Assembly: GCA_019747895.1 (NCBI GenBank)
Contig: JAIEQF010000013.1
Coordinates: forward strand, 67,104-131,103
DNA: 64,000 nt
Origin: Chthoniobacterales bacterium
Lineage (GTDB): Bacteria > Verrucomicrobiota > Verrucomicrobiia > Chthoniobacterales > UBA6821
Reading direction: 5' to 3'
Below are positions 14,969 through 36,315 of this stretch, in pieces. Each line of letters begins with the position of its first letter. Within the stretch, counting starts at the first letter, position 1. Below the pieces are notes generated by a model, which was not told the origin of the DNA, made no database searches, and was given only the letters and a program-made list of their open reading frames with translations. The translations under genes were made by a program, and so were the position numbers.

Positions 14969-14975
14969 GATAGAG

Positions 14976-20411: not shown

Positions 20412-22169
20412 ATGAATCTTCCTAAAAAAGTTTTTCCTTTCCTTGTTTATTTTATTCGTCAGCAATGGATCAAGTTTGCGTTCATCCTTGCCGCTTCGAT
20501 GATTTGGGGCGCCAACAATGCTCTTTTCCCTTTTTTTCTTAAAAAAATTATCGATGCTTTTGCAACCCATCCTGATTTTTCTTTAGGACTAGATAGCGCG
20601 AGTAAAATATTGGTGGTGCTTCTTCTGTTGCTCATCGGGAGTGAGGCTTTATTGCGCCTTCAAGGGTTTGTTCTTATTCGTTTTATCACGCGCTTGCGTG
20701 CTGATACTCGAGCGGAGCTTTTTCGTTATGTGCAGACTCATTCGAGTTCTTATTTTGCAACTCATTTTTCTGGAGCGATCGCAAATAAAATTTCGGATGT
20801 CCCTATTAATAGTGAGCTCATTTTGTTATCTATCTGTTTTGAATTTATCATTGCCGCCATTGGGGCTCTTGTCGTGATTATAACTATGTGGATGAGCCAT
20901 CCCTTGTTTGGTGAAATCTTAATGGGCTGGATTATTATTCATTTGATCCTGACGTTTTTTTTCATCAAAAAAAGTCAACAGCCTCTTCAGAGGCATGCTG
21001 ATGCTGTCACAACACTCTCTGCGAAAATTGTGGACATCATTACCAATATTCAAAATGTAAAATTATTTGCTCGAGAAGAGTATGAGCGTGAGTACCTCAG
21101 TCGTTTTCAGGAAGAGGAAATCATCAAAGCTCGTCGAGCTCAGGGCTTTTTACAGTCAATGTATGTCGGATTTAGCGTCAATGCGCTTTGCATGATCTTA
21201 GGATTGCTCTTTCTTTTAATTTATGGATGGAAAGAGCATTGGGTTACACTTGGAGATTTTACCCAAATCATGATGCAGGCATTTTGGCTCTCTGGATGGA
21301 TGTGGTTTGTCAGTCATCAAATGACGCTCCTAGCTAAAACAACAGCCGCTATCAATGCAGCGCTAGCACTGATTCAACAACCGCATGATGTCGTAGATGC
21401 ACCGGATGCAACTAAATTAAAAGTTTCACGAGGAGAAATTTCTTTTGATAGCGTGAGTTTTTCTTATCATCAGCAACCTGTTTTTCAAAATCTCAATGTG
21501 ACAATTCATGCTGGCGAAAAAGTAGGAATTGTGGGCTTGTCGGGAGCTGGTAAGACGACTTTCATGAATCTCATCTTGAGGCTTTATGAATTGAATGCAG
21601 GAAAAATTTTGATCGATGGACAATCAATTGCAACTGTCACGCAACAATCGTTGCACGAAAATATAGCCGTCATTCCGCAAGAGCCGCTGCTTTTTCATCG
21701 TACCTTGATGGAAAATATTCGCTATGGGCGTCTCGAAGCTACTGATGAAGAGGTCCTCAAGGTTTCTCAGCAGGCCCATTGCCACGAATTTGTTGAACAA
21801 CTCTCTGCAAAATATGAAACACTCGTGGGGGAGCGCGGAATCAAGCTTTCAGGAGGGCAACGTCAACGCATTGCTATTGCACGAGCTTTGTTGAAAGATG
21901 CACCAATCCTTATTTTAGATGAAGCCACTTCATCTCTTGATTCGATGACTGAGAAAAAAATTCAAGAAGGGTTGCGCATGTTGATGCAAGGAAGAACAAC
22001 CATCGTGATCGCTCATCGTCTTTCAACGCTCGCAGCTATGGATCGTATTTTAGTTTTTCATGAAGGCAACATTGTCGAAGACGGAACCATTCAGGAATTA
22101 CTTCACGAAGGAAATCATTTTGCAACGCTCTGGAAAATGCAGCGTGAAGGTTCGACTATTGATGATTGA
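20412..22169 (+). CDS. ABC exporter (fused TMD-NBD)
   Basis: GLSGAGKTT, LSGGQRQR, ILDEATS, IAHRLST. Confidence 0.93.
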   Translation: MNLPKKVFPFLVYFIRQQWIKFAFILAASMIWGANNALFPFFLKKIIDAFATHPDFSLGLDSASKILVVLLLLLIGSEALLRLQGFVLIRFITRLRADTRAELFRYVQTHSSSYFATHFSGAIANKISDVPINSELILLSICFEFIIAAIGALVVIITMWMSHPLFGEILMGWIIIHLILTFFFIKKSQQPLQRHADAVTTLSAKIVDIITNIQNVKLFAREEYEREYLSRFQEEEIIKARRAQGFLQSMYVGFSVNALCMILGLLFLLIYGWKEHWVTLGDFTQIMMQAFWLSGWMWFVSHQMTLLAKTTAAINAALALIQQPHDVVDAPDATKLKVSRGEISFDSVSFSYHQQPVFQNLNVTIHAGEKVGIVGLSGAGKTTFMNLILRLYELNAGKILIDGQSIATVTQQSLHENIAVIPQEPLLFHRTLMENIRYGRLEATDEEVLKVSQQAHCHEFVEQLSAKYETLVGERGIKLSGGQRQRIAIARALLKDAPILILDEATSSLDSMTEKKIQEGLRMLMQGRTTIVIAHRLSTLAAMDRILVFHEGNIVEDGTIQELLHEGNHFATLWKMQREGSTIDD

Positions 22170-22200: not shown

Positions 22201-22968
22201 ATGAAATGTGTCATTTTAGCAGGTGGCCTTGGAACCCGCATTAGCGAAGAAACGGTGCTCAAGCCAAAACCAATGGTAGAAATCGGAGGGAAGCCCCTTC
22301 TTTGGCATGTGATGAAAATTTATTCCGCACATGGCATTAACGACTTCATTATCTGTGCTGGCTACAAGGGATATTTGATCAAAGAATATTTTGCTAACTA
22401 TTTTCTGCACATGTCAGATGTTACTTTTGACATCAAAGAAAATAGTATGGAGGTTCATGAGCGTTATGCTGAGCCATGGAAAGTGACCGTTGTGGATACG
22501 GGAGAGGAGACGATGACTGGAGGGCGTTTAAAAAAAGTAGCTCGTTATCTTGGAGCCGAGACGTTTTGTATGACCTATGGTGACGGAGTGGGAGATGTTG
22601 CTATTCCAAAGGTTTTAGAAGCACATCATTGCAGTCAGCGCAAAGCCACCATCACTGCAGTGCAGCCACCAGGGCGCTTCGGAGCGCTTCATCTTGAAAA
22701 TGATGCCGTCGCTCATTTTATTGAAAAGCCAGAGGGTGATGGCGCTTGGATTAATGGTGGTTTTTTTGTTTTAGAGCCAGAGGTGCTTTCCTACATCGAG
22801 CATGATCAGATCATCTGGGAACGAGAACCCTTGCAGCGCCTTGCTCAGGAAAAAGAATTGTCGGCTTATCAACATCATGGTTTTTGGCAGCCAATGGACA
22901 CCCTTCGTGACAAGCAGCTGCTTGAAGAGTTGTGGCATAAGGGGCAGGCTCCGTGGAAGATTTGGTAA
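22201..22968 (+). CDS. rfbF: Glucose-1-phosphate cytidylyltransferase
   Basis: [43 protein letters not shown]. Confidence 0.96.
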
Positions 22969-23111
22969 ACCTGCCTTGTAAGTTCTACTGAGAGAGCGAA
23001 GAGCTGCGTTACTCCGGTGCTCGTCGCTTCACGTATTAGATATACGCTCAGCGCCTGTGCTCCGAGGCGCCTTGCTCTTCATCACTCTCAGCGAACTTCC
23101 AAAGCAGGTTA
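22967..23111. mobile_element. PE1 copy D, intergenic, starting at the rfbF stop codon
   Basis: Ends aacctgccttgtaagttc / gaacttccaaagcaggtt; core ctccggtgctcg...tatacgctcagcgcctgtgc. Confidence 0.88.
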
Positions 23112-23145
23112 TCATTTGAGAGGGAGAGTATACTCTCCTGTAGTA

Positions 23146-23306
23146 ATACCATCTTTAATAATTACTAAGACCATTTGACTTGTTCTTTTGGCGCTGAGCA
23201 TCGTTGTCATCCCTAGCGTTATCTTTGGATAGCGCTTCGGTCTGACGCCTTGCTTAACGCCAAAACTCCTGCCTCAAATAATCTCATTAATTATTAAAGA
23301 TGGTAT
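23146..23306. mobile_element. PE2 palindromic element / MITE-like, copy 1
   Basis: Perfect 19-bp terminal inverted repeat ataccatctttaataatta; internal gacttgttcttt...gcgttatc-tttg-gatagcgc...aaaactcctgc. Confidence 0.85.
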
Positions 23307-23381
23307 AATAATGATTGTACAAATTTTGGACAAAAATTTATCTTTTAGTGAAATTTCGCGAGTTTAGCAGTTTATTTTTTT

Positions 23382-24491
23382 ATGTCTTCTTTACATGCCC
23401 AGCTTTCTAATATCTACCGAGGAAAGAAAGTCTTTCTCACAGGCCACACCGGCTTCAAAGGAGCATGGCTGGCTGAATGGTTGCTGCAGCTAGGAGCGGA
23501 AGTGCACGGTTATGCTTTAGAGCCAGCGACAACGCCTGTGCTATTTCAGCAATTGAATTTGGCTTCACGATTGCATCATCAAATCGGAGATGTGAGAAAT
23601 TTTAAATTACTACAAGAATCGATCCTCTCTTTTCAACCTGATTTTGTTTTTCATTTAGCCGCTCAACCTCTTGTGCGCTATTCGTATCAAGAGCCCCTTG
23701 AAACTTACGAGACCAATGTCATGGGAACGTTGCATCTGTTGGAGGCGCTCCGAGAATTGCAGAAAATTTCTTCTCATCGCATTGCTGCGGTGATGGTCAC
23801 GACCGATAAGTGTTATGAGAATAAGGAGGATCAGACTGCTTATCACGAAGATCATCCTCTCGGCGGACATGATCCTTACAGCTCGAGCAAAGCGATGGCT
23901 GAAATTGGAACAGCAGCCTATCGGCGTTCTTATTTTTCAAATGCTTCTGCAGTGCATGTGGCTACCGCTCGTGCTGGCAATGTGATTGGTGGAGGAGATT
24001 GGTCGGCTGATCGTATTGTTCCTGATGCTATTCGTGCCTTAGAAAAAAAAGAACCGATCTTTGTTCGCAATCCTTCTTCCGTAAGGCCTTGGCAGCATGT
24101 TCTGGAGCCGCTCTGCGGGTATTTGATGTTGGGGGCTCAACTCATGCAAGATCGTGAATTAGCAGGAGCTTTTAATTTTGGTCCTCATCCCGAAGAAAAT
24201 TATTGTGTCGCTGATGTGGTGACCGAAGTTTTGAAATCCTGGCCAGGCTCGTGGCAAGATCGGAGTGATCCGACTGCGCTCCATGAAGCACGTCATCTAA
24301 ATCTCTCCATCAAAAAAGCTGTCGATCTTTTGGGATGGTCTCCTGTTTGGAATTTTGAAAAAACAATAACGAAGACTGTTGAGTGGTATCGTCTGCATCA
24401 CGAAGATCCCAAAAGTACACGTGCATTAACTCAGGAGCAGATTGTTTCTTACGAAGCGGATGCAGAGGCTTCTGGGATCTCACTTTCTTGA
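23382..24491 (+). CDS. rfbG: CDP-glucose 4,6-dehydratase
   Basis: TGHTGFKGAWL, HLAAQPLVR, TTDKCYEN, DPYSSSK, RPWQHVLEPL. Confidence 0.95.
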   Translation: MSSLHAQLSNIYRGKKVFLTGHTGFKGAWLAEWLLQLGAEVHGYALEPATTPVLFQQLNLASRLHHQIGDVRNFKLLQESILSFQPDFVFHLAAQPLVRYSYQEPLETYETNVMGTLHLLEALRELQKISSHRIAAVMVTTDKCYENKEDQTAYHEDHPLGGHDPYSSSKAMAEIGTAAYRRSYFSNASAVHVATARAGNVIGGGDWSADRIVPDAIRALEKKEPIFVRNPSSVRPWQHVLEPLCGYLMLGAQLMQDRELAGAFNFGPHPEENYCVADVVTEVLKSWPGSWQDRSDPTALHEARHLNLSIKKAVDLLGWSPVWNFEKTITKTVEWYRLHHEDPKSTRALTQEQIVSYEADAEASGISLS

Positions 24492-24493
24492 TC

Positions 24494-25987
24494 ATGAATA
24501 AAACTGCCGCTGACCTCAAAAAAGAAATTCTCCGTCTCACGCAGGAATATTCCTCGCTCATGCATCAGGGCAATTTGCCAGCTTGGGGGAGAGAGTCTGA
24601 TTTTATTCCTGGTGAAACAATCATTCCGTATGCGGGTCGTGTTTTTGATTCCCATGAAGTTGAAGCTGCCGTCGGAAGCACGCTTGATTTTTGGCTGACG
24701 CTGGGAAAAGAGGGTGAAGCTTTTGAAAAAGAGTTTGCTGCTTTTCTTGGTGTCAAACATACGCTCTTGGTCAATTCCGGATCCTCCGCAAACTTGGTGG
24801 CCCTCTCAGCGTTGACGACCCACAAACTCCCTTCGCATCAGCGTCTGCAGCCGGGAGATGAAGTTATTACCGTGGCAGCTGGTTTTCCAACGACGGTGGC
24901 TCCGATCATTCAGCTAGGGGCAGTTCCTGTTTTTCTCGATAACAATCCTGCAACTGGAAACATGAATGTTGCGTTGTTAGAAAAAGCTTTTTGTGAAGGA
25001 AAAACAAAAGCAGTGATGATGGCTCATGCTCTTGGTAATCCTTTTGATCTAGGGACCGTCTTGGAATTTTGTCGTCGTCACGGTCTCTGGCTCATCGAAG
25101 ATAATTGTGATTCGCTCGGCTCCACGTATTCGATGCCGCTCGAGCGAGCTAAAAAATTGGGAGTGACGCAGAATTCTCCCGGTATTCCTTCCGATGGAAA
25201 AAATATCACGCGTTACACGGGAACATGGGGCGATCTTTCCACTCAATCTTTTTATCCGCCGCACCATCTCACGATGGGCGAGGGAGGCGCGGTGAATATC
25301 ATCTCGCGTCCGCCGCTCAAGTCCTATGCAGAGAGCTTTCGTGATTGGGGGCGCGATTGTTGGTGTGCTTCTGGAAAAGATAACACCTGCAACAAACGCT
25401 TCTGCTGGCAGCTTGGCGAATTGCCCAAGGGATACGACCACAAATATATTTACAGTCATCTCGGCTACAACTTGAAGCCGCTTGATCCTCAAGCTGCGAT
25501 CGGACGCGAGCAGCTCAAGAAGCTGCCTGCTTTTGTCGAGGCGCGGAAAAAAAATTGGGAGATCTTGCGTGCGGGGCTCGCTCACTTGGAAGAGTTTTTT
25601 GAGTTTTCTTTGCCGACCCATGCGACCGCTTGGAATCAAGATGGCACTTTCGATTGGGATGATTCTGGATGTCAGACTGACTGTTCTTGGTTTGGATTTA
25701 TGCTGCGCGTCAAAGCAACAGCTCCTTTTTCTCACACTGACTTTGCGCGTTATCTCGAAGAGAAAAAAATTGGAACGAGGATGTTTTTTGGAGGAAACTT
25801 GCTGCGACAACCAGCATTTGTACAGTTGAAGAAAGATCGTTCCGAGGCCTTGCGTGTGGTGGGAAGCCTCGCTGGAGCTGATGACATCATGAACAGTGCA
25901 CTTTTTTTAGGAACTTATCCTGGATTGACGCAAGCGATGTTGGAGTATGAAATTAAGATGATTCATGAGTTTTGCCTTCCTTCTTGA
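24494..25987 (+). CDS. rfbH: CDP-4-keto-6-deoxyglucose 3-dehydratase (RfbH/DdhC)
   Basis: FYPPHHLTMGEGG (His in place of the PLP Lys), RDWGRDCWC, GYDHKYIYSHLGYNLK; start ATG 24494. Confidence 0.93.
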   Translation: MNKTAADLKKEILRLTQEYSSLMHQGNLPAWGRESDFIPGETIIPYAGRVFDSHEVEAAVGSTLDFWLTLGKEGEAFEKEFAAFLGVKHTLLVNSGSSANLVALSALTTHKLPSHQRLQPGDEVITVAAGFPTTVAPIIQLGAVPVFLDNNPATGNMNVALLEKAFCEGKTKAVMMAHALGNPFDLGTVLEFCRRHGLWLIEDNCDSLGSTYSMPLERAKKLGVTQNSPGIPSDGKNITRYTGTWGDLSTQSFYPPHHLTMGEGGAVNIISRPPLKSYAESFRDWGRDCWCASGKDNTCNKRFCWQLGELPKGYDHKYIYSHLGYNLKPLDPQAAIGREQLKKLPAFVEARKKNWEILRAGLAHLEEFFEFSLPTHATAWNQDGTFDWDDSGCQTDCSWFGFMLRVKATAPFSHTDFARYLEEKKIGTRMFFGGNLLRQPAFVQLKKDRSEALRVVGSLAGADDIMNSALFLGTYPGLTQAMLEYEIKMIHEFCLPS

Positions 25988-26018
25988 CTATAAAAACTTA
26001 ATCTGTTAGGCCTTTTTT

Positions 26019-26219
26019 ATGATCACTCAACAACCGCCGCCGCATCCTTCCAGTTCTCATTTGGCAGAGGCTTCTTGTGAAGATCTTTCCTTCGATTCTA
26101 TTCCCTATGATGTAGAGCTCATCGCCGCTATCGAAGAGGCTCGGGCTGAGATTAGATGTGGAGAATTTATTACACACGAAGAACTTGAAAAAGAATTTTA
26201 TTCATGGTTTTTCGAATAA
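26019..26219 (+). CDS. Antitoxin, paralogue of 19059-19256
   Basis: AIEEARAEIRCGEFITHEELEKEFYSW. Confidence 0.72.
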   Translation: MITQQPPPHPSSSHLAEASCEDLSFDSIPYDVELIAAIEEARAEIRCGEFITHEELEKEFYSWFFE

Positions 26220-26503
26220 TTGTCTCTCCCGGAGCAAGGCGTGATCTTAGAGGGATTCAACGTTATATTTCTATTGATTCGCCTCAAGCAGCTCTACGCT
26301 TTGGTCAACGACTTCTGAAAAAACAAGAAATGCTTGGAAGTCATCCTGAAATAGGACGTGTCGTTCTTGAAATAGGTAATCGAGCGGTACGAGAGCTTAT
26401 TGTTGGAAATTATCGATTGATTTATGAAGTCAATTTTTTGAACAAGGAGATTGAAATATTTCGCTACTGGCACGCTGCTCGAGGGATTCCAAAGGTCACT
26501 TGA
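26204..26503 (+). CDS. RelE/ParE-family toxin, paralogue of 19241-19537
   Basis: FRIIVSPGARRDLRGIQRYISIDSP, RELIVGNYRLIY. Confidence 0.9.
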   Translation: MVFRIIVSPGARRDLRGIQRYISIDSPQAALRFGQRLLKKQEMLGSHPEIGRVVLEIGNRAVRELIVGNYRLIYEVNFLNKEIEIFRYWHAARGIPKVT

Positions 26504-26510
26504 TATACTC

Positions 26511-27551
26511 ATGACGAATAAAAAAACCATTGTTCCACCACTTCCTCAGGAAGATCTCGAGCATGTCTTAACACACACGAAGCCGCTCTGGGAGCAGGTG
26601 CGGGGAGGTCGGATTTTTGTGACGGGGGCTACTGGTTTTTTTGGAATTTGGTTATTGGAAACTTTTTTGTATGCCAATGACCAATTGAAATTAGGAGCGG
26701 AGCTTGTGGGACTCAGTCGTAAACCTGCCGCTTTTGCTGCAAAGGCTCCTCACATCGCCAATCATCCAGCGATTAAAATGCATGCTGGTGATGTGCGTGA
26801 TTTTGTTTTTTCTGAAGGGGGTTTTTCACATGTGATTCATGCGGGCACAACTTCCAGTGCGCCCGTGCCGCCCTTGGAAATGCTGGAGACAATTACTCAA
26901 GGAACACGGCACACGCTTGATTTTGCAGTCGCTTGTGAGGCCAAGCGATTTCTTTTTGTCAGCTCTGGTGCCGTTTATGGTGAGGCGCCAAGTAAGGATC
27001 ATCATTTTTCCGAAGAAGATTCTACGGCTCCCGATCCAAAGAATTCTAACTCAGCGTACGGCGAAGGGAAGCGCCTTGCTGAGTTATTGTGTCGACTTTA
27101 TCATGACAACCATCAGCTGGAGACGACGATTGCCCGTTGCTTTGCCTTTGTCGGACCGCATCTGCCACTCGATGCTCATTTTGCCATTGGAAATTTTTTG
27201 CGAGATGCTCTAGAAAAAAAACCGATCATGATCAAGAGCGATGGTCAGTCTCAACGTTCGTACCTCTACGCTGCCGACCTCATGATCTGGCTCTGGACGA
27301 TTCTTTTTAAAGGTGAGCCCTGCCGCCCATACAATGTCGGTTCGGAGCACGCACTCACGATCAAGCAGCTGGCGGAAAAAGTTCATGGCACACTGCAACT
27401 TGAGGAAAAAGTACAGATCGGAACCGGCGGCAAAATTTCGTTCTACATTCCTCAGACAGCACGAGCTCAACAGGAATTAAGATTGCAAGAGTGGGTGACG
27501 ATCGAAGAGAGTGTTCGGAGATATTTTAGTTGGCTTAAGGTGAATTTTTGA
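26511..27551 (+). CDS. NAD-dependent epimerase/dehydratase (extended SDR)
   Basis: TGATGFFG, SSGAVYG, YGEGK, ARCFAFVGP. Confidence 0.88.
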   Translation: MTNKKTIVPPLPQEDLEHVLTHTKPLWEQVRGGRIFVTGATGFFGIWLLETFLYANDQLKLGAELVGLSRKPAAFAAKAPHIANHPAIKMHAGDVRDFVFSEGGFSHVIHAGTTSSAPVPPLEMLETITQGTRHTLDFAVACEAKRFLFVSSGAVYGEAPSKDHHFSEEDSTAPDPKNSNSAYGEGKRLAELLCRLYHDNHQLETTIARCFAFVGPHLPLDAHFAIGNFLRDALEKKPIMIKSDGQSQRSYLYAADLMIWLWTILFKGEPCRPYNVGSEHALTIKQLAEKVHGTLQLEEKVQIGTGGKISFYIPQTARAQQELRLQEWVTIEESVRRYFSWLKVNF

Positions 27552-27589
27552 GAATGATTAACTTTTCCTAAAAATCAAAAATCAAAAAA

Positions 27590-28468
27590 ATGAAACAGGA
27601 GCTTATCATTAATCATCGAGCTGTCGGTAATGGACATCCCGCTTATATTATTGCAGAGATTGGGATCAATCATAACGGAAGTGTTGAAATAGCAAAGAGC
27701 CTCATTTCAATTGCAAAAAATTCTGGATGTGATGCAGTCAAGTTTCAGAAACGCACCGTTGATATTGTTTACACGGCAGAAGAATTAGCTAAGCCTCGTG
27801 AAAATCCGTTTGGTGCTACCAATGGTGATTTGAAGCGTGGCTTGGAATTTGGAGTTGAGCAGTACCGTGAGATCGATGAGTTTTGTAAAGAAATAGAGAT
27901 GACGTGGTTTGTTTCGTGCTGGGATGAACCTTCCGTTGATTTTATAGAACAGTTTAAAATGCCTTGTTATAAAATTGCTTCAGCTTCTCTCACTGATGAT
28001 GCCTTGTTGCGATACACGCGGGCTACTGGAAAACCTATTCTGCTTTCAACGGGCATGAGTACTTATAAAGAAATTGATCATGCTGTAGAAATTTTAGGCA
28101 AGCATGATCTTATCTTGATTCATACCTGCAGCACCTATCCTTCCAAATACAACGAACTAAATCTGCGCGTCATTCCTGAGCTGTATAAACGTTATGGCGT
28201 TCCTGTCGGCTATTCAGGCCATGAGACAGGGATTGCTTCTTCGGTAGCGGCGGTGACTCTTGGAGCTTGTCTTATTGAACGTCATATTACACTCGATCGT
28301 GCTATGTGGGGCTCAGACCAAGCCGCTTCCTTGGCTCCCAGTGGACTTTCCCATTTGGTGCGTGATATTCGACTTGTTGAAGAATCGATGGGCGATGGAG
28401 TCAAGATTGTTCAAGAGAGTGAGATTCCTGTCATGAAGAAACTTCGTCGAGTAGGATGTAAGTCATGA
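27590..28468 (+). CDS. NeuB/SpsE-family keto-deoxy-ulosonic acid synthase (no C-terminal SAF/AFP domain)
   Basis: IAEIGINHNG, DAVKFQ, KIASA, STGMS, GYSGHE, IERHITLDR. Confidence 0.9.
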   Translation: MKQELIINHRAVGNGHPAYIIAEIGINHNGSVEIAKSLISIAKNSGCDAVKFQKRTVDIVYTAEELAKPRENPFGATNGDLKRGLEFGVEQYREIDEFCKEIEMTWFVSCWDEPSVDFIEQFKMPCYKIASASLTDDALLRYTRATGKPILLSTGMSTYKEIDHAVEILGKHDLILIHTCSTYPSKYNELNLRVIPELYKRYGVPVGYSGHETGIASSVAAVTLGACLIERHITLDRAMWGSDQAASLAPSGLSHLVRDIRLVEESMGDGVKIVQESEIPVMKKLRRVGCKS

Positions 28469-29160
28469 TTCCAAATAGACCGCTCTCAAAACTCGCTGAT
28501 GGTGATGAAGCGCAAGGAGGCGACGGCGCACAGCGACTGAGTGTACAAGAGCATACAGCCGGCTGGGAGGCCGCTGGATCAAATGCCGAAGGCAGCCCCA
28601 GAGGGGCGAGCCTCGCGGGAGCGAGCGAGTTGCTCCTCGATGGCGCGAGCGCCGGCGCGACACAGCGCTTCGCATCAGCAGTAGAGTTTGGAAAGCGGTC
28701 TAAAATCAAAGCAATCGTTCTCGATATAGATGGAGTCTTAACTGATGGGACTTTTTGGTGGGATCTTAATGGTGGTGAACAAAAACGTTTTAGTTTTCGT
28801 GATGTGATGGGGATTGTGCGAGCAGGACGAAAGGGAATTTTATTTGCACTCATTTCTGGAGAAGAAAATGTCATGGTCGATCGCCTTGCTGCAAAACTGA
28901 ATATTGATTCTGTTTATCAGGGATGTTCTGACAAAGCCTCAGCTCTTCGCTCTTTTGCAAAAGAAAAAAATCTTTCACTCTCAGAAATTTGTTTTATGGG
29001 AGATGACATCAATGATCTTGACGCGATTGAGATTGCAGGCTATTCCGCAGCTCCTGCAAATGCTCATGAAAGCGTCTTGAGTGCGGTCGATTTTGTTGTA
29101 AGAAAATCGGGAGGCGATGGAGCTGTGAGAGAGTTAATTGATTCTTTAGTTGCGATATGA
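28465..29160 (+). CDS. KdsC-like HAD phosphatase with a 75-aa PE1 insert after residue 4
   Basis: LDIDGVLTDG, ISGE, MGDDINDL, GGDGAVRE; ATGA overlap with the neuB-like stop supports the start. Confidence 0.9.
   Translation: MIPNRPLSKLADGDEAQGGDGAQRLSVQEHTAGWEAAGSNAEGSPRGASLAGASELLLDGASAGATQRFASAVEFGKRSKIKAIVLDIDGVLTDGTFWWDLNGGEQKRFSFRDVMGIVRAGRKGILFALISGEENVMVDRLAAKLNIDSVYQGCSDKASALRSFAKEKNLSLSEICFMGDDINDLDAIEIAGYSAAPANAHESVLSAVDFVVRKSGGDGAVRELIDSLVAI
28476..28702. mobile_element. PE1 copy E, long form (227 bp), in frame
   Basis: Ends tagaccgctctcaaaactc / gagtttggaaagcggtcta; carries an extra ~81-nt central module shared with copy H. Confidence 0.93.
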
Positions 29161-29873
29161 AAAATATCTTGAGCCATAAAAAAGTTTTGATTACTGGAGC
29201 CAATGGCGGCCTCGGAGTTGCTATTGCAAAAGAGCTAGCAACTTTAAAGTGTCATCTTTTTTTGACGGCTCGCAATCGTTCTTCTCTCGAGCAACTAGCA
29301 AGCGATCTTCATGAAATCAGTCCTGAGGTAGAAATATTTTCTGCCGATTTAACAAAAGAAATAGAACTGAAAGAGCTTGAAAAAAAAGTTCGATCAACTT
29401 TTCAATCAATAGACATTCTCATTAATTGTGCCGGAGTTTTTCCGGTAGCCTCTATTTCTGAGTCAACACTTGAAGAGTTTGATGCTTGCTTTGCTCTTAA
29501 TGTGAGAGCGCCATTCTTTTTATCAAAAGCATTTTTGCCTGATATGATGACTCGTCAATGGGGGCGCGTTGTGAATATTGGGTCATCATCTGCTTTCAGT
29601 GGTTTTAAAGACACTTCTATTTATTGTGCCTCGAAACATGCATTGCTGGGCCTCAGCCGGGCGCTCTATCAAGAGATGAGAGATAGCAATGTGAGGGTCA
29701 TCTCTATTAATCCAGGATCGATCAAAACAGAGATGGGAAAGAAAAGTGATGACCAAGAATTTAGTACCTTTCTCAATCCAGAGGATATTGCAAAATACTT
29801 AGCATTTAGTATTGCCATTGATTCTGAATTGATTGCCGAGGAGATTAGACTTAATCGTTTTGTGATTAGGTAA
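29157..29873 (+). CDS. Classical SDR oxidoreductase
   Basis: TGANGGLG, INCAG, YCASK. Confidence 0.9.
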   Translation: MKNILSHKKVLITGANGGLGVAIAKELATLKCHLFLTARNRSSLEQLASDLHEISPEVEIFSADLTKEIELKELEKKVRSTFQSIDILINCAGVFPVASISESTLEEFDACFALNVRAPFFLSKAFLPDMMTRQWGRVVNIGSSSAFSGFKDTSIYCASKHALLGLSRALYQEMRDSNVRVISINPGSIKTEMGKKSDDQEFSTFLNPEDIAKYLAFSIAIDSELIAEEIRLNRFVIR

Positions 29874-29911
29874 AATATTACTCTGCGATCTTGGCTTCAC
29901 TTATTTTCAAT

Positions 29912-31723
29912 ATGAAACTTTCCGATTATGTCATTGATTTTTTAGTTCAGCGGGGAGTTAATCATGTTTTCTTTTTGCCTGGTGGGGCAGCCATGCATCT
30001 CAACGATTCGCTTGGAAAAAGGCGTCAAGAAATTGCCTTTATTCCCATGCTGCATGAACAAGCTGTTTCGATTGCTACAGAGGCCTACGCCAAATCATCT
30101 CAGCAGTTAGGAGTTGCAATGGTCACGAGTGGGCCTGCGGGAACGAATGCTCTTACTGGTGTGGTAGGAGCTTGGCTTGATTCAACAGCATGTATTTTTT
30201 TATCAGGGCAAGTAAAACGAGCAGATCTTAAACAAAATCCCAAACTCCGACAGTTAGGCTCACAAGAAGTCGATATCACGACCATTGTTAGTTCTGTTAC
30301 TAAACACGCTATTACGATTACTGACCCTAAAAGTATACGGTATCATTTAGAAAAAGCTTTTTACCTAGCTCATCATGGAAGACCTGGTCCTGTATGGCTT
30401 GATTTTCCTTTAGACGTGCAAGCACACGAGATTGCTCCAGAGACATTAGAAACATTTGTTCTACCATGTTCGGGAGAAAAGGATCTTCTAATCTTAAAAA
30501 AGAAAGTTCATCAGGTGTTAGAAATGCTTCAAGCTGCGGAGCGACCTATTATTGTCGCAGGAAATGGTATTCGCATTGCCAATGCGATTCCAGAATTTCA
30601 TGAATTAGTCGACCTGGTAGGTGCTCCGGTCCTGACGACATGGCCTGCTATGGATTTGCTCCCTCATGATCATCCTCTCTTTGCTGGCAGGCCCGGTATC
30701 ATTGCGCCTCGAGGAGCTAACTTCACACTTCAGAATAGTGATCTGATGATAGTGATAGGGTCTCGCTTAGATATGTTTTTTACGGGCTATGCTCACCAAA
30801 ATATGGCTCGAGGAGCAAAAAAAGTGATGGTTGATATTGATGAGGAAGAGATCAAGAAAATGCAGACAGAAATACATCTTCCTATCGTTGATGATGCGCG
30901 TTCTTTCATTTTAGAATTTTTAGATCAAATTAAAAAAATGTCCTCTAAGCCTCATGGTCGTTTTGATGCTTGGGTAAAACGAGTGCAGGAATGGAAGAAA
31001 AAATATCCGCTGGTGCAACCAGAGCATCGTCAGGTGAAAGATCGAATAAGTCTTTATTATTTTTCTGAAATTATTTCTCAAGAGCTTCCAGAAGGCGCTC
31101 TGGTTGCGCCTGGAAGTTCCGGAGTTGCTATCGAATTATTTTTACTTAACTTTGCTGTCAAAAAAGGTCAGCGCGTCTTTCATAATCGCGGACTTGGCTC
31201 CATGGGATTTGCATTGCCTTCTGCTATTGGAGCGTGTTTAGCCGCTGGCAACAAAGAAACGATTTGTGTTGATGGCGATGGCGGCTTTCAAATGAATGTC
31301 CAAGAGTTGGCTCTTGTGGCTCAATGGAAGTTGCCCATCAAAATTTTTGTGCTCAACAATGATGGTTATGCCTCGATTCGCACCTCTCAACAAAATTATT
31401 TCAAACAATTAGTCGGAGCAGATAGCAGCAGCGGTCTAGCATTACCCGACTTGCAAAAAATAGCCGCAGCTTATGAAATTCCAGCGGTGCGTTTGGAAAA
31501 TCACGAGAATTTAGCATTGAAGATTCGTTCTGTCTTAGCAACACCAGGACCTGTCATTTGTGAAGTCATGGTGCTTCCTGAAGAAGAGCGAGTGCCCCGT
31601 CTTTCTTCTATGCAGCGTCCTGATGGAAGCATGGTTTCTAAGCCTCTTGAAGATTTGTGGCCGTTCTTGGATCGTCAGGAATTTTTATCTAATATGATAG
31701 TGCCTGCACTGGAGGAGAAGTAA
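29912..31723 (+). CDS. Thiamine-diphosphate-dependent enzyme (acetolactate synthase-like / YerE-like)
   Basis: HEQA, TSGPAGTN, GSMGFALP, DGDGGFQMN...NNDGY ThDP motif. Confidence 0.9.
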   Translation: MKLSDYVIDFLVQRGVNHVFFLPGGAAMHLNDSLGKRRQEIAFIPMLHEQAVSIATEAYAKSSQQLGVAMVTSGPAGTNALTGVVGAWLDSTACIFLSGQVKRADLKQNPKLRQLGSQEVDITTIVSSVTKHAITITDPKSIRYHLEKAFYLAHHGRPGPVWLDFPLDVQAHEIAPETLETFVLPCSGEKDLLILKKKVHQVLEMLQAAERPIIVAGNGIRIANAIPEFHELVDLVGAPVLTTWPAMDLLPHDHPLFAGRPGIIAPRGANFTLQNSDLMIVIGSRLDMFFTGYAHQNMARGAKKVMVDIDEEEIKKMQTEIHLPIVDDARSFILEFLDQIKKMSSKPHGRFDAWVKRVQEWKKKYPLVQPEHRQVKDRISLYYFSEIISQELPEGALVAPGSSGVAIELFLLNFAVKKGQRVFHNRGLGSMGFALPSAIGACLAAGNKETICVDGDGGFQMNVQELALVAQWKLPIKIFVLNNDGYASIRTSQQNYFKQLVGADSSSGLALPDLQKIAAAYEIPAVRLENHENLALKIRSVLATPGPVICEVMVLPEEERVPRLSSMQRPDGSMVSKPLEDLWPFLDRQEFLSNMIVPALEEK

Positions 31724-32559
31724 TGTTGCTTGGTATCATGCAAGGAAGGCTTCTTCCACCAGTAGAAAATCGGATCCAATCTTTTCCAAAAGATCGATGG
31801 GCGGAGGAATTTTCTTTAGCAGCTTTATTAGGGATCCAGACGATTGAATGGATTTATGAAGATTATGGCTCCAAAGAAAATCCTATAGCAACGGATGTTG
31901 GAATTATGCGCCTCAAGGAACTTTCTTCTCAGTACGGAATAAAAGTTCTTTCTCTTTGTGCCGACTATTTTATGGATTATCCGCTCTTGCGTTGCAGTGT
32001 CATCCAGCAACGAGAACGTATTGCCAAATTAGAGTGGCTCCTCGAGAGAGCTCAACAGGCCGCTATCGCTTCCGTTGTTCTGCCTTTTGTTGATCATTCC
32101 AACATCAAAAATGAAGAGGAAATTAAAGAGACCATCTCCTTGCTTCAAGAAGTATTGCCTTTTGCTGAGCGCTATCAGGTAGAGCTTCATTTAGAAACAG
32201 ACTTGGAGCCGCACCTTTTTTCGTCGTTGCTTCATCGCCTTCCTCATCCTCTTTTAAAAGTCAACTATGACTCTGGTAACAGTGCCTCTTTAGGATATTC
32301 CATATCAGAAGAATTCAAAGCTTATGGAGAGCGTATTGGGAGTGTTCATATTAAAGATCGTCTGCGCGGAGGAGGCACAGTTCCATTAGGTCAGGGAGAT
32401 GTTTCTTTTGCTGAGCTTGCAGCCGCTTTGCAACGCATCGATTATCAGCGTCCTCTCATTTTACAAATTGCTCGTGGAGTTTCTGGAAGCGAAGTTGATT
32501 GGGTAAGAGAAAATATAAAAACAGTAAAAACAATTTTCAAAAAAACAGATCATTCATGA
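31723..32559 (+). CDS. Sugar-phosphate isomerase/epimerase (AP-endonuclease-2 TIM barrel)
   Basis: GIMQGRL, LHLETD, NYDSGNS, VHIKDR. Confidence 0.85.
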   Translation: MLLGIMQGRLLPPVENRIQSFPKDRWAEEFSLAALLGIQTIEWIYEDYGSKENPIATDVGIMRLKELSSQYGIKVLSLCADYFMDYPLLRCSVIQQRERIAKLEWLLERAQQAAIASVVLPFVDHSNIKNEEEIKETISLLQEVLPFAERYQVELHLETDLEPHLFSSLLHRLPHPLLKVNYDSGNSASLGYSISEEFKAYGERIGSVHIKDRLRGGGTVPLGQGDVSFAELAAALQRIDYQRPLILQIARGVSGSEVDWVRENIKTVKTIFKKTDHS

Positions 32560-33383
32560 ACCCTCTTTCTTTATTTAGTATAAAAAATAAGATTGCTGTT
32601 ATTACTGGTGGCGCTGGTCTTCTTGGGCGTGAACATGCGCATGCCATAGCGCTTGCTGGTGGAATCCCAGTTATTTTCGATGTGCTCGCTGCTGCTCCTA
32701 TCAAAGTAGCAAAAGCATTAACACAGGAGTGGGGAACTTCTGTTTATGGCTATGAAGTTGATATTACTAACATAGAAGCGATCAAGGAAGTTCAACGGAA
32801 GTTGAGCTCTGAGTTAGGACGTATTGATATTTTAATTAACAATGCTGCTAACAATCCTAAGATGGATGGCGATTCCAAGTCTAACGCGTCGCGATTTGAA
32901 ACATTCTCTTTAGAGGCATGGAATCAAGATTTGGCTGTTGGATTAACAGGTGCTTTTTTATGTTGTCAGGTTTTTGGCGCTGAAATGGCCCATCAAGGTT
33001 CTGGAGTGATTGTTAATATTGCTTCCGATTTAAGTCTAATTTCACCCGATCAACGACTCTATCGAAAGCCCGATCTTCCTGATCAAATGCAACCAGTAAA
33101 GCCAGTGACTTATTCTGTGGTGAAGAGTGGTATCATTGGGCTGACTCGTTATTTGGCAACCTATTGGGCTGATCGCGGTGTTCGTGTGAATGCGCTTTCG
33201 CCAGGCGGTGTTTTTACAGGACAAGATGCAGCCTTCGTCCAACGTCTGACTTCCTTAATTCCATTGGGACGTATGGCTACTCCTACGGAATATCAGGCTG
33301 CCATCATTTTTCTTTGTTCAGAGGCATCGGCATATATGACAGGAAATAATTTAGTGATGGATGGAGGAAGGACATGTTGGTGA
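32556..33383 (+). CDS. SDR oxidoreductase of nonulosonate-type sugar clusters
   Basis: TGGAGLLG, NNAANNP, PVTYSVVKSG, RVNALSPGG. Confidence 0.88.
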   Translation: MNPLSLFSIKNKIAVITGGAGLLGREHAHAIALAGGIPVIFDVLAAAPIKVAKALTQEWGTSVYGYEVDITNIEAIKEVQRKLSSELGRIDILINNAANNPKMDGDSKSNASRFETFSLEAWNQDLAVGLTGAFLCCQVFGAEMAHQGSGVIVNIASDLSLISPDQRLYRKPDLPDQMQPVKPVTYSVVKSGIIGLTRYLATYWADRGVRVNALSPGGVFTGQDAAFVQRLTSLIPLGRMATPTEYQAAIIFLCSEASAYMTGNNLVMDGGRTCW

Positions 33384-33403
33384 TTTTTTAATGAATTCGA
33401 TTT

Positions 33404-34315
33404 TTGATAATAATGAAACACCGTGCAAAGCAGCATGTTTATCTTTTAGGAGCGAGTGGCCGTTTAGGCAACGTGCTCCTGGAGGCTTGGAGTCATCATC
33501 CAGAAATTGAATCCATCATTCCTTTAGGAAGAAAAGAAATTGATTTTACAAATCCTTCCGTGGCTCAAAAAAAATTTTCTTCTTACGAGCTCCATGAGAA
33601 CGATCTTGTGATCAATTGTGTTGCTTTAACGGATGTTGATTATTGCGAACGAGAGTCGTTAGAAGCTACGACCATCAATGCAACCACGCCGGCTCTTTTA
33701 GCAGAAGTTTGTGCCAAGCGACGAGCTCGTTTTCTTCAAGTGAGTACGGATTATGTTTTTGATGGAACATTAGACCAACTTTATCGAGAAACAGATGAAC
33801 CAGCACCTTTAAACCAGTATGGCAGTAGTAAGCTTGCGGGAGAAAAAGGTGTGATGGCATCATCACCAGATCATCTGATTGCCCGCATTTCATGGGTCTT
33901 TGGGCCAGGGTGTCCTAGTCTTGTTGATCAAATAATTCAGGAAGCGATGACTTCGAAAGAAGTTAGTTCTGCTGCTGATAGGATTGCCTCTCCTTCTTTT
34001 ACTCGTGATTTAGTAGAGTGGTTTAAATTTTTTCTCAATCCATCTCTCGAAGGTGGCATCTATCATCTTTGCAATACGGGAGTTTGTTCTTGGCATGAAT
34101 ATGGTACGTATGTTTTAAAAAGAGCCGCGCATTATGGATTACCTGTTTTAACAACAGAAATTACTCCAGTGAATTTATATTCTATGAAGCAGTTTGTGAC
34201 ACGCCGTCCATTAAGGACTCCTCTTGATACTAGCAAGTTTTGCGAGCGGAGCGGTCTTCCTCTTCGCCCATGGCAAGAGGCAGTAGAGGAATATTTATTA
34301 AAATATAAATTATAA
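33404..34315 (+). CDS. dTDP-4-dehydrorhamnose reductase-like (RmlD family)
   Basis: GASGRLG, STDYVFDG, YGSSKLAGE. Confidence 0.85.
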   Translation: MIIMKHRAKQHVYLLGASGRLGNVLLEAWSHHPEIESIIPLGRKEIDFTNPSVAQKKFSSYELHENDLVINCVALTDVDYCERESLEATTINATTPALLAEVCAKRRARFLQVSTDYVFDGTLDQLYRETDEPAPLNQYGSSKLAGEKGVMASSPDHLIARISWVFGPGCPSLVDQIIQEAMTSKEVSSAADRIASPSFTRDLVEWFKFFLNPSLEGGIYHLCNTGVCSWHEYGTYVLKRAAHYGLPVLTTEITPVNLYSMKQFVTRRPLRTPLDTSKFCERSGLPLRPWQEAVEEYLLKYKL

Positions 34316-34383
34316 CTTATTTGAAAAAGGAAACTTTTTTTCAGAATAAACAAATAGAGTCAACGCGACAAAAGGAAACTTTT

Positions 34384-35361
34384 ATGAAAAAAACTAAACA
34401 AATTAAAAGAATCTCAGCGATGCAAAAAGTTAAAAACTGGCTTCTATTGCTGGGGGCAAGTTGTCTTTTAACGCAATGGTCACTGAAACTATATGGTTTG
34501 CTCAAGGGGTATAAGATAGCTTTTAAAAAAGGATCTATCGAGGTGAGGAAAAAAAATCGATGTCTTATTATTAATGAAAAAGACTGCATATTTATGCCAT
34601 TCATCATGCGCGGATTCTTTGATGAAAAATTCAATGAGTTTGATGCAAAGCAAATCAGCAATGAAGAAGTGCTTGATTTTTCAAAACCAGGAATTCATCA
34701 CCTAAAAAATCATGGAATTGATTTTATGTTTGTCGGTATTGCTGATGCTCCTATTGATACTTACATTGATAAATTTCAGCCCACTTCAGGAATGATCGTT
34801 TTTGATGTTGGCGCTCATGTTGGTGCCGTTAGCTATTTTTTTTCAAAGATGGTCGGGGAATATGGTAAAGTCTATGCTTTTGAGCCTGATGACACTAATC
34901 GATATTACTTTGATGTTAATCTCAAAAACAAAAAATTAAATAACGTAACAATTTTAGATACCGCGTTAGGATCTCAATCAGGCAAGGAAATGTTTTTTAT
35001 AGATGGATCCATGAGGTCATCCTTTATTGAAAATGCTACCTACCTTCCCCGTAATGTTGTTAAAAAAGAAGTGCCTGTTCTAACAATTGAAGACTGTTGT
35101 CATCAATTAGGTGTTATTCCAAATTTTATTAAAATGGATATTGAAGGTGCAGAAATTGGTGTTATTAAAAGTTCTTTAGAGTTTCTTAAAAAACATCCTA
35201 TTCATTTTGCAATTGAGAGTAATCACCTGACTCAAGATGGTTTTTTGACCTGTTATGAATTAGAAACACTATTTAGATCTATTGGCTATCTTGTAGAATC
35301 ATCGGATAAGTTTGGAGAAATGTTCACATGGGCAACACCTCCGGATGCAGTTAGAAGCTAG
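34384..35361 (+). CDS. FkbM-family SAM-dependent methyltransferase
   Basis: FDVGAHVG, YAFEPD, IKMDIEGAE; start uncertain (34321/34384/34420). Confidence 0.85.
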   Translation: MKKTKQIKRISAMQKVKNWLLLLGASCLLTQWSLKLYGLLKGYKIAFKKGSIEVRKKNRCLIINEKDCIFMPFIMRGFFDEKFNEFDAKQISNEEVLDFSKPGIHHLKNHGIDFMFVGIADAPIDTYIDKFQPTSGMIVFDVGAHVGAVSYFFSKMVGEYGKVYAFEPDDTNRYYFDVNLKNKKLNNVTILDTALGSQSGKEMFFIDGSMRSSFIENATYLPRNVVKKEVPVLTIEDCCHQLGVIPNFIKMDIEGAEIGVIKSSLEFLKKHPIHFAIESNHLTQDGFLTCYELETLFRSIGYLVESSDKFGEMFTWATPPDAVRS

Positions 35362-35369
35362 TTATTATC

Positions 35370-36305: not shown

Positions 36306-36315
36306 TTAATCCATT

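Follow-up and report, generated by a model that had tools for sequence, protein, structure and literature searches.

A 64,000-nucleotide stretch of contig JAIEQF010000013.1 from a Chthoniobacterales bacterium (positions 67,104 to 131,103; hereafter the window, in whose numbering all coordinates are given) carries a gene cluster that combines rfbF, rfbG and rfbH, the genes for CDP-4-keto-3,6-dideoxyglucose, with genes for a NeuB-family synthase, a KdsC-type phosphatase and a thiamine diphosphate (ThDP)-dependent enzyme. The cluster raises the question of what becomes of the sugar acid that the synthase and the phosphatase would make. An initial annotation had proposed that this acid is decarboxylated by the ThDP enzyme and joined to C4 of the CDP-sugar, and comparative genomics (gene adjacency, an alternation between CMP-transferase and ThDP genes, and the YerE-like identity of the ThDP enzyme) makes this the best-supported reading. 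From the gene context, we consider it on balance probable that the operon makes a CDP-activated 3,6-dideoxyhexose whose C4 bears a long polyhydroxyalkyl branch, derived from a sugar acid of the sialic acid type. The logic of long 2-keto-acid donors has already been published (Steitz et al. 2022); what appears to be new here is the source of the donor, a NeuB synthase with a phosphatase.

Gene cluster and acceptor pathway

Every open reading frame (ORF) of at least 150 amino acids (aa) in the window was scanned with Pfam, and the equivalog cut-offs of NCBIfam were used for gene identity. Related loci were collected in three scans: a ThDP-centred scan with one genome per species (80 loci, with homologues 32-81% identical to the window ThDP enzyme), a NeuB-centred scan with the window NeuB as the query (80 loci among the matches listed, 54-75% identity), and a third scan with ThDP sequences of an aldolase-associated clade as the query (80 further loci). 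The closest locus is from a Chthoniobacter metagenome-assembled genome (MAG; L001), followed by L081 from Verrucomicrobiae.

The family scans recovered, all on the plus strand, every gene that the initial annotation had named (rfbF, rfbG, rfbH, NeuB, KdsC, two short-chain dehydrogenases/reductases (SDRs), the ThDP enzyme, a TIM barrel and RmlD), but its list was incomplete, because an extended SDR, a ParDE pair and the downstream genes up to 38706 were missing from it. From 22.2 to 38.7 kb every gene is on the plus strand, neighbouring genes being a few bases apart or overlapping slightly, and this co-directional, tightly packed run goes past 34315 to 38706 with the genes of an FkbM methyltransferase, a family 2 glycosyltransferase (GT2) and a 796-aa GT-C-like membrane protein. 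Synteny with L001 extends over the entire cluster (68-86% protein identity), which rules out a chance arrangement. Two L001 genes between the SDR and NeuB, for a 577-aa protein with no Pfam match and an FAD amine-oxidase-like protein, are missing from the window. Between 20000 and 39900, promoter-like matches numbered 32 against 34.4 ± 5.7 in shuffled sequence, and terminator-like matches were little better (30 against 20.0 ± 4.3); no match of either kind lay at the ends of the operon, and its limits therefore rest on gene spacing alone. A scan of the whole window with Rfam found no RNA family.

The acceptor genes matched equivalog models well above their cut-offs. RfbF/DdhA (22201..22968; TIGR02623, 457 bits versus 300), a glucose-1-phosphate cytidylyltransferase, would convert glucose 1-phosphate and CTP to CDP-glucose, and RfbG/DdhB (23382..24491; TIGR02622, 471 bits versus 278), a 4,6-dehydratase, would convert CDP-glucose to CDP-4-keto-6-deoxyglucose. 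RfbH/DdhC (24494..25987; NF011936, 636 bits versus 423) is the CDP-6-deoxy-4-hexulose 3-dehydrase known as E1, an enzyme of the pyridoxamine phosphate/[2Fe-2S] type, and its hallmarks are present in the sequence: PHH, with histidine in place of the lysine that binds pyridoxal phosphate, and DCWCASGKDNTC (C-x-C-x7-C). Its start was placed at MNKTAADL, probably at about 24494, directly after the rfbG stop. Together with a reductase encoded elsewhere, RfbH would yield CDP-4-keto-3,6-dideoxy-D-glucose. CDP-glucose formation, 4,6-dehydration and E1-type 3-deoxygenation are thus predicted steps that are supported at the equivalog level.

Sugar-acid module

The NeuB-family gene (27590..28468) encodes a putative phosphoenolpyruvate (PEP)-dependent synthase of 292 aa (PF03102, 262 bits). 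The protein has no SAF domain, aligns to positions 2-277 of the 329-position model, and scores under the equivalog cut-offs of NeuB (249 versus 400 bits) and PseI (218 versus 340 bits); its best solved relative, 6ncs, is likewise 290 aa long. Without a SAF domain, an equivalog-level score and a linked CTP_transf_3 gene, it is not a NeuB, PseI or LegI protein in the strict sense.

The HAD phosphatase (28465..29160) belongs to the KdsC/YrbI family (TIGR01670, 120.6 bits versus 106.95). Its top NCBIfam model is the phosphatase of Kdn (3-deoxy-D-glycero-D-galacto-non-2-ulosonic acid) 9-phosphate, whose cut-off of 180 bits was not reached (133.7 bits). The HAD core spans residues 81-229, with the motif DIDGV (DxDG core) visible in the translation. 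The first 75 codons or so are an inverted copy (28476-28702) of a dispersed repeat described below, and the L001 orthologue (158 aa) is without this extension. The N-terminal 80 aa were also considered as the lost SAF domain; this was rejected, as they have no Pfam match and correspond to the repeat copy.

Two further proteins were assigned to the sugar-acid module. The xylose-isomerase-like TIM barrel (31723..32559; PF01261, 78.6 bits) is of the sugar or sugar-phosphate isomerase/epimerase type, with weak top NCBIfam matches to L-ribulose-5-phosphate 3-epimerase models, and its homologues (33-55% identity) accompany NeuB even in loci without ThDP and CDP-sugar genes. The classical SDR downstream of it (SDR2, 32556..33383; adh_short_C2, 147 bits), whose start was set by comparison with L001, resembles gluconate-5-dehydrogenase/KduD-like sugar-acid dehydrogenases in NCBIfam. 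Homologues of SDR2 were present in 45 and of the TIM barrel in 18 of the 80 NeuB-centred loci among the matches listed, in loci with a CMP-transferase (where SDR2 homologues are 57-61% identical) as well as in those with a ThDP enzyme. Since both proteins travel with NeuB in the two contexts, they were assigned to this module and not to tailoring of the CDP-sugar.

NeuB homologues about 59% identical to that of the window occur in Streptomyces, whose walls carry Kdn polymers (Kdn-containing teichulosonic acid; PMC11481543), from which we infer that these homologues make Kdn. Together with the Kdn-9-phosphate phosphatase as the best match of the HAD protein, they give a hint of a C9, Kdn-like acid. 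Separately, a GmhA-like SIS isomerase gene (TIGR00441, 183 bits versus 209) was observed at a median of 155 nt from the NeuB-like gene in both CMP- and ThDP-type loci (L082-L086, L092, L094, L096, L105, L118, L122, which equals L008, and L139); it stands beside NeuB in 11 related loci, and none was found in the window. This neighbour hints that the synthase may take an aldose phosphate derived from a ketose phosphate, possibly heptose 7-phosphate, and suggests that NeuB substrates other than the Kdn type are possible.

Identity of the ThDP enzyme

The ThDP gene (29891..31723) encodes a putative YerE-like carboligase with the TPP_enzyme_N, M and C domains, all above cut-off. In the alignment to the structure 8rph, HEQ with the catalytic glutamate and the motif GDGG-x24-NN were seen. 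Its top matches in the PDB were JanthE (8rph, 400 bits), PpYerE (5ahk, 268 bits) and the acetohydroxyacid synthases (AHAS) of plants and bacteria (about 250 bits). A true AHAS was considered and rejected, as the enzyme scored 368 bits against the 538 bits of TIGR00118 and fell below the cut-off of every AHAS model. No AHAS small-subunit or ilv gene was found among the Pfam matches of the window ORFs, and the possibility left open at first, that this gene encodes a genuine AHAS, can be set aside. Among the 80 ThDP-centred loci, rfbF-like genes were present in 45, 4,6-dehydratase- or extended-SDR-like genes in 55 and rfbH-like genes in 37. By its domain architecture, its closeness to characterised YerE-like enzymes and its linkage to rfb genes, the protein is best classified as YerE-like, and the characterised members of this family are carboligases that accept ketones (PMC12247030).

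The window enzyme falls outside the subgroup nearest the pyruvate-specific PpYerE, which is 41-43% identical to the enzymes of L072 and L075 and 33-35% identical to members of the NeuB-associated clade among its matches listed. The hotspot residues of JanthE (PMC12188165) were mapped onto the ThDP alignments. In PpYerE and AHAS, the site of JanthE V121 is occupied by the Phe of a GFQE motif; it is Ser in the window enzyme and in L001, Val in the other enzymes of the NeuB core and in an aminotransferase-associated clade, Asp in all 19 aldolase-type enzymes, and Phe in the deep subgroup closest to PpYerE. A smaller residue at this site would fit a larger donor, a weak indication that also tracks phylogeny.

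NeuB-HAD-ThDP association across genomes

In one coherent clade of the ThDP tree, the ThDP gene has a NeuB homologue (53-86% identity), usually together with HAD, at a distance of no more than 1.4 kb. This adjacency was found in more than 10 phyla, including Verrucomicrobiota, Planctomycetota, Chloroflexota (Anaerolineales/Chloroflexia), Acidobacteriota, Myxococcota (Myxococcales), Bacteroidota, Actinomycetota, Margulisiibacteriota, Bacillota (Lachnospiraceae) and Synergistota (Synergistales). None of the genomes from cultured organisms in the ThDP-centred set (L045, L052, L054, L065 and L068) has NeuB and HAD immediately upstream of its ThDP gene. Other ThDP clades have other neighbours: an HpcH/HpaI aldolase (PF03328) in 14 loci, and in 9 others a class I/II aminotransferase at 0-0.7 kb. 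No HpcH aldolase was found in the NeuB clade, and no pyruvate aldolase family was found by Pfam in the window ORFs. The third scan replicated the adjacency. It returned five new enzymes with the active-site pattern of the NeuB core, V-x-A-Y-R: in four of these loci (L234, L236-L238) NeuB (69-73%) and HAD (47-63%) are directly upstream of the ThDP gene, and in the fifth (L226, a 4.7-kb contig) NeuB was matched at the level of a hidden Markov model (HMM) only. The arrangement of the four is shared by L227, whose active-site pattern is different.

The position of the cassette is informative. The extended SDR gene (26511..27551; Pfam Epimerase, 123 bits) encodes the candidate YerF/ErwF-like reductase of the C1' ketone of the branch, a role judged by position; its homologues (38-57% identity) are conserved upstream of the ThDP gene in other loci. 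In aldolase-type loci the extended SDR gene is 9-45 nt upstream of the ThDP gene, whereas in NeuB-type loci the distance is 1.4-2.2 kb, and the gap is filled by exactly NeuB and HAD. By gene order, the NeuB/HAD cassette thus appears to sit inside the YerF/YerE-like pair.

The arrangement could also be read as another use of the NeuB product, either plain decarboxylation to a 2-deoxy-aldose or an AHAS-like addition of a pyruvate unit to the C2 ketone of the ulosonic acid, with the CDP-dideoxyhexose made separately. No part of the cluster is as tightly conserved as the NeuB-HAD-ThDP triad, some short contigs (L022, L005 and L066) show it without visible rfb genes, and the score of about 250 bits against true AHAS structures would suit such chemistry. 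However, on contigs that are long enough, rfbF/G/H or a YerF-like SDR is nearly always present, the characterised family members are ketone-accepting carboligases as noted above, and both the scores under the AHAS equivalog and the lack of a small-subunit gene among the window Pfam matches argue against it. We regard this use as quite unlikely.

The NeuB-centred loci (80 among the matches listed) showed the alternative fate of the acid. A CMP-transferase gene was present in 59, typically as a CTP_transf_3::HAD fusion at a median of 0.8 kb from NeuB, and these loci also hold transferases of the Kdo (3-deoxy-D-manno-oct-2-ulosonic acid)/nonulosonic acid style (Capsule_synth, MptE-like). A ThDP enzyme (at least 45% identity) was present in 12 of the 80, with a stand-alone HAD and usually with rfbF/G/H. 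The two genes never occurred together in these 80 loci (Fisher's test, p = 5e-9, a value that ignores phylogeny). The NeuB tree mixes the two contexts: the Chloroflexia group L082-L086, from CMP-type loci, falls for example within a set of ThDP-type sequences. This indicates that both kinds of loci use close relatives of one NeuB family and plausibly make similar acids. The simplest reading of these patterns would be that NeuB and HAD, with or without SDR2 and the TIM barrel, provide a free 3-deoxy-2-ulosonic acid that goes either to CMP activation or to the YerE-like enzyme. The absence of a CMP-sugar synthetase, as initially annotated, was borne out: no CTP_transf_3 was found by Pfam in the window ORFs, and a custom CMP-transferase profile HMM, built from 49 domains of related loci and run on six-frame ORFs of at least 70 aa, found none in the window and none in the 80 ThDP-centred loci. 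Likewise, the 103 otherwise unlabelled neighbour ORFs of NeuB-clade loci contained no CTP_transf_3 family with even two members.

These results also bear on the possibility that two pathways share one operon, with the ThDP enzyme acting on pyruvate to give a yersiniose-type sugar, and a Kdn- or Kdo-like acid being CMP-activated by a transferase encoded elsewhere, such as KdsB, and incorporated separately. Surface-glycan loci often mix pathways, most NeuB-family homologues feed a CMP-transferase (the 59 of 80 loci among the matches listed), and a Gram-negative host is expected to have kdsB somewhere. Moreover, classical YerE uses pyruvate (PMC9306805). On the other hand, the transferase of CMP-type loci is close to NeuB and fused to HAD, while no ThDP-type locus has it within 8-10 kb, and the HAD there stands alone; NeuB and HAD lie exactly between the YerF-like and YerE-like genes; and the window enzyme is nearer to JanthE than to the pyruvate-specific PpYerE and is without the Phe of PpYerE and AHAS. 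The association also recurs in Actinomycetota, Chloroflexota and Bacillota, which are generally not expected to make Kdo. Two separate pathways therefore seem unlikely to us, although less so than the other use of the NeuB product considered above.

A second ThDP subclade (L164, L169, L172, L176, L178, L181, L196 and L207) has a distant NeuB-family gene, 27-32% identical to that of the window, downstream of the ThDP gene, mostly directly so and up to 3.5 kb away in L172, with no HAD and no CMP-transferase. Its active-site pattern is D-I/L-R-Y-K/R (D-I-R-Y-R in 5 of 8). Judged from gene order and active-site residues, this appears to be an independent association of a NeuB-family gene with a YerE-like gene. 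A one-to-one rule between ThDP clade and donor-supply gene was considered and rejected: it holds for the NeuB-core and aminotransferase clades but not throughout, as many loci with Asp at the V121 site have no supplier recognised close by and some have a distant NeuB. The 80 loci returned by the third scan included none from Pectobacterium, Mycobacterium or Yersinia.

Two other YerE-like clades were observed in the course of these scans. The clade with an aminotransferase neighbour (L033, L041, L050, L053, L057-L059, L062 and L070) is from gut or rumen Lachnospiraceae, Butyrivibrio, Eubacterium and Bacteroides, and from one Methanosarcinales MAG (L033); the ThDP gene is at about 10001-11800 in most of these loci, and rfbF/G/H are present in all but the short contig L041. 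The neighbour suggests that branch donors may be made from amino acids by transamination, a route that the literature examined describes as a synthetic trick only. The other clade (L030, L034, L035, L039, L043-L045 and L048, also L161, L164 and L165) is from Burkholderiales, Bradyrhizobium canariense, Polynucleobacter, Acidimicrobiaceae and others. Most of its loci have an SDR directly upstream (not L043) and a 3-dehydroquinate-synthase-like sugar-phosphate cyclase, with no rfbH; an HpcH aldolase is found only in L034, L035, L044 and L048, and an FGGY kinase only in L030, L039, L043 and L045. Speculatively, the products of such loci might be branched sugars that contain a carbocycle, of the kind of caryose or bradyrhizose.

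Proposed pathway

In the pathway that we favour, in which the sugar acid becomes the branch of the CDP-sugar, the NeuB-family synthase would condense PEP with an aldose phosphate to give a 3-deoxy-2-ulosonate phosphate, the TIM-barrel isomerase and SDR2 probably supplying or tailoring its substrate. The KdsC-type phosphatase would then free the 3-deoxy-2-ulosonic acid, perhaps of 7-10 carbons; conserved gene context suggests both of these steps. The acid would not be CMP-activated but decarboxylated by the YerE-like enzyme, and the resulting acyl-anion equivalent would be added to the C4 ketone of CDP-4-keto-3,6-dideoxyglucose, giving a tertiary alcohol with a 1'-oxo-2'-deoxy-polyol branch one carbon shorter than the ulosonic acid. 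Reduction of the 1'-ketone would fall to the extended SDR, which holds the place of YerF, or possibly to the RmlD-like enzyme. Another classical SDR (SDR1), the RmlD-like reductase and the FkbM methyltransferase may tailor the product by redox reactions and O-methylation. GT2 would move the sugar from CDP to polyprenyl (undecaprenyl) phosphate, and at the outer face of the cytoplasmic membrane the YfhO-like GT-C protein would pass it on to an acceptor in the envelope.

More broadly, and more tentatively than for the operon itself, the data may point to a widespread pathway, in more than 10 phyla of mostly uncultured bacteria, in which a Kdn- or Kdo-type acid is the acyl-anion donor for a YerE-like enzyme. 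Its products would be C4-branched 3,6-dideoxyhexoses of 13-15 carbons, larger than caryophyllose and gastriose and displayed via a polyprenyl-phosphate carrier, and the pathway would have arisen by a swap of the CMP-transferase for a ThDP carboligase, at least twice and with different NeuB subfamilies. If this is true, the scheme for long-branched sugars gains a second, PEP-dependent donor route, and a new class of very large monosaccharides is predicted on the surfaces of Verrucomicrobiota, Planctomycetota, Acidobacteriota, Chloroflexota and others, whose glycans are almost unstudied. Such loci could be recognised by a NeuB gene and a stand-alone KdsC-like HAD gene beside a YerE-like gene, with no CMP-transferase. 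For biocatalysis, the clade would offer ThDP carboligases whose donors may include polyhydroxylated C7-C10 sugar acids, a class that goes beyond the donors assayed so far; for evolution, it would be a case of one sugar-acid module wired to two different downstream chemistries.

Several points weigh against this pathway. It rests on gene context, and the NeuB-associated clade is known from genes alone. 3-Deoxy-2-ulosonic acids are mostly cyclic hemiketals, which leaves a small open-chain fraction for a ThDP enzyme. A housekeeping KdsB encoded elsewhere in the genome is possible. On the NeuB substrate, and hence on the length of the branch, the family models say no more than 'NeuB family' and 'Kdn-9-phosphate phosphatase-like'. 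Shared ancestry may account for part of the alternation between CMP-transferase and ThDP genes, and the evidence for association is weakened further by the mechanical calling of ORFs and the use of simple neighbour-joining trees; in 41 of the 64 'Asp-type' loci, none of the tested suppliers was found within 6 kb. RfbF, RfbG and RfbH had initially been taken to make CDP-4-keto-3,6-dideoxyglucose; their identities stand, but they do not suffice alone, since E1 needs an electron-transfer partner. No protein with Fer2, FAD_binding_6 or NAD_binding_1, as expected for the E3 reductase (DdhD/RfbI/AscD), was found among ORFs of at least 150 aa in the 64-kb window, and E3 would have to be encoded elsewhere in the genome. 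Finally, a toxin-antitoxin pair and small repeats have entered the operon, with every ORF still open.

Insertions and repeats

Three insertions in the cluster are absent from L001. The insert between rfbF and rfbG (22969..23381), which overlap in L001, was delimited by repeat families (D1, D8 and I18) and alignment; it consists of one copy of about 145 nt of the dispersed repeat (22969 to about 23110) and an element resembling a miniature inverted-repeat transposable element (MITE) with 33-nt inverted ends (23146-23306). Between rfbH and the extended SDR lies a pair of genes for a ParD-like antitoxin (26019..26219) and a ParE toxin (26204..26503; PF05016 ParE_toxin, 63.7 bits), both on the plus strand, which is not part of the pathway. 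The third is the repeat copy at 28476-28702 in the HAD gene.

These insertions and the missing E3 reductase could mean that the cluster is decaying or inactive in this genome and that the sugar is no longer made. Yet all 14 of the 14 pathway ORFs are intact and of full length compared with L001, the same repeat lies in frame in the apparently essential ffh and mutL and is thus seemingly tolerated, and most related loci are also without a linked E3 (NAD_binding_1 in 2 of the 103 neighbour ORFs). We consider decay very improbable.

The dispersed repeat is GC-rich, with a core of about 145 nt, a long form of about 225 nt and conserved ends, and has no Rfam match. Copies were located at 1902-2047, 2779-2843, 17355-17498, 22969 to about 23110, 28476-28702 (inverted), 48451-48515, 49914-50055, 61407-61629 and 63191-63326. 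It lies in frame in long intact ORFs for ffh/SRP54, mutL, a GH31 glycosidase, a GT2, a cyclase and the HAD phosphatase, splitting the GTPase domain of ffh/SRP54 into two Pfam stretches, and in this it is like the Rickettsia palindromic elements, which are likewise inserted within coding genes. The MITE-like elements (130-170 nt, with terminal inverted repeats of about 32 nt) are at 23146-23306, 38684-38851, 54655-54822 and 55087-55254; the copy at 38684-38851, related to the one between rfbF and rfbG, comes directly after the last operon gene. Short AT-rich intergenic repeats based on the motif CGCAAAGAACGCAAAGAA occur in both orientations, often as inverted pairs flanking gene ends (669-726, 1169-1221, 14923-14969, 41716-41914, 43385-43555, 47146-47330 and 60352-60507).

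Reductases, tailoring and export genes

Two oxidoreductases appear to be lineage-specific. SDR1 (29157..29873; adh_short, 183 bits), a putative tailoring enzyme, is conserved only in L001 (76%), with weak matches elsewhere. The RmlD-like reductase (33404..34315; PF04321, 226 bits; TIGR01214, 218.6 bits versus 224, marginally below), a putative ketoreductase, is also conserved only in L001 and is an alternative candidate for the reduction of the branch ketone. The FkbM-family methyltransferase (34321..35361; PF05050, 62 bits; TIGR01444, 85 bits) probably O-methylates the sugar or its branch; FkbM genes recur beside the ThDP gene in NeuB-type loci.

The GT2 gene (35370..36305; PF00535, 76 bits) encodes a putative polyprenyl-phosphate glycosyltransferase of the GtrB/CsbB/ArnC/PgfS type, with scores below cut-off for the PgfS (197 bits) and ArnC (97 bits) models, and homologues (45-67% identity) were present in 32 of the 80 ThDP-centred loci. 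The last gene (36316..38706) encodes the polytopic membrane protein of 796 aa, a putative YfhO-like GT-C (weak match to PF09586 YfhO, E = 2e-4), in which residues 1-470 hold some 12-14 hydrophobic segments and a soluble region leads to a last transmembrane (TM) segment at 754-775; it is 76% identical in L001. Of the features expected of a GT2/GT-C pair, the GT2 domain with two C-terminal TM segments and the topology of the large protein were seen, the YfhO match is weak, and no ORF for a GtrA-type flippase was found near the cluster. Upstream, the gene of an MsbA-like ABC exporter with fused permease and ATPase (20412..22169, plus strand; Pfam ABC_membrane and ABC_tran; MsbA-related NCBIfam model, 365 bits, below cut-off) ends 31 nt before rfbF. 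It was not seen in L081; its membership in the cluster is uncertain, and it possibly flips or exports a lipid-linked sugar.

Comparison with known systems

The putative GT2/GT-C pair resembles CsbB/YfhO, GtrB/GtrC, ArnC/ArnT and PgfS/PgfM: a GT2 gene whose product has two C-terminal TM helices comes directly before the gene of a large, polytopic GT-C-like protein. These lipid-carrier systems use a UDP-sugar donor, whereas the donor in the window would be a CDP-sugar, with an MsbA-like exporter upstream and no GtrA-type gene seen. The sugar-acid module resembles the CMP-ulosonic pathways. The Kdn-type pathway, as in Bacteroides thetaiotaomicron, consists of a NeuB-like synthase, a Kdn-9-phosphate phosphatase and a CMP-transferase. 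Such loci have in common with the window the NeuB-like synthase (54-75% homologues), the KdsC-family domain and often homologues of SDR2 and the TIM barrel, but they carry the CTP_transf_3::HAD fusion, while the HAD of the window stands alone, without a CMP-transferase, and its module is placed in a CDP-sugar/YerE-like operon.

Among YerE-like enzymes, JanthE (Janthinobacterium sp. HH01; 8rph, 8rpi and 8rpj) is the best solved relative; it takes longer donors and has Val where the NeuB clade has Val or Ser, but its motif is CDG against GDG in the window enzyme, and its physiological substrates have not been identified (PMC12188165). Its nearest relatives among our loci (37-40% identical) are of the aldolase, aminotransferase and NeuB types. 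The yersiniose A system (DdhA-D, YerE and YerF of Yersinia pseudotuberculosis O:VI; PpYerE, 5ahk) has the same acceptor pathway and enzyme family and the same order of a C4 tertiary alcohol followed by ketoreduction. It differs in the pyruvate donor and C2 branch of YerE, in the Phe of the PpYerE subclade where the window enzyme has Ser, and in its ddhD, as the window is without this E3 gene.

An in-silico survey by Krug et al. (2024) reportedly covers more than 200 YerE-like clusters. Our search of the literature on branched sugars, thiamine enzymes and NeuB, whose reach did not extend to that survey or to Lanza et al. (2024) on JanthE, found no donor route by NeuB and a phosphatase. Longer 4-C-branched sugars exist, as initially stated, and their general chemistry is established: ErwE, MMAR_2332 and MyGE take hydroxylated 2-keto acids of C4-C8 as donors, ErwE rejecting pyruvate, and in the scheme that Steitz et al. 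(2022) proposed, erwiniose, caryophyllose and gastriose arise when such acids are joined to CDP-4-keto-3,6-dideoxyglucose and a YerF-like reduction follows (PMC9306805). Gastriose already implies a C8 sugar-acid donor, so that the pathway proposed here extends known chemistry and introduces no new principle. By their published description, the clusters for erwiniose (ErwE/F/I/J, Pectobacterium atrosepticum), caryophyllose (MMAR_2331/2332, Mycobacterium marinum) and gastriose (MyGE/MygI/MygF, M. gastri) are like the window in having CDP-4-keto-3,6-dideoxyglucose genes, a YerE-like ThDP enzyme and, going by the position of the window's candidate, an adjacent NAD(P)H reductase, and further in a dedicated enzyme for a hydroxylated 3-deoxy-2-keto-acid donor, in some cases a methyltransferase, and a product meant for a surface glycan. 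The donor in all clusters of Steitz et al. is made by a pyruvate aldolase (PMC9306805), of the HpcH/HpaI or BphI type, and a 2025 review gives the same picture. The window has no such aldolase and instead carries, between its reductase and ThDP genes, the PEP-dependent NeuB and the KdsC-type phosphatase, which together imply a sugar-phosphate substrate and probably a longer, sugar-acid-like donor.

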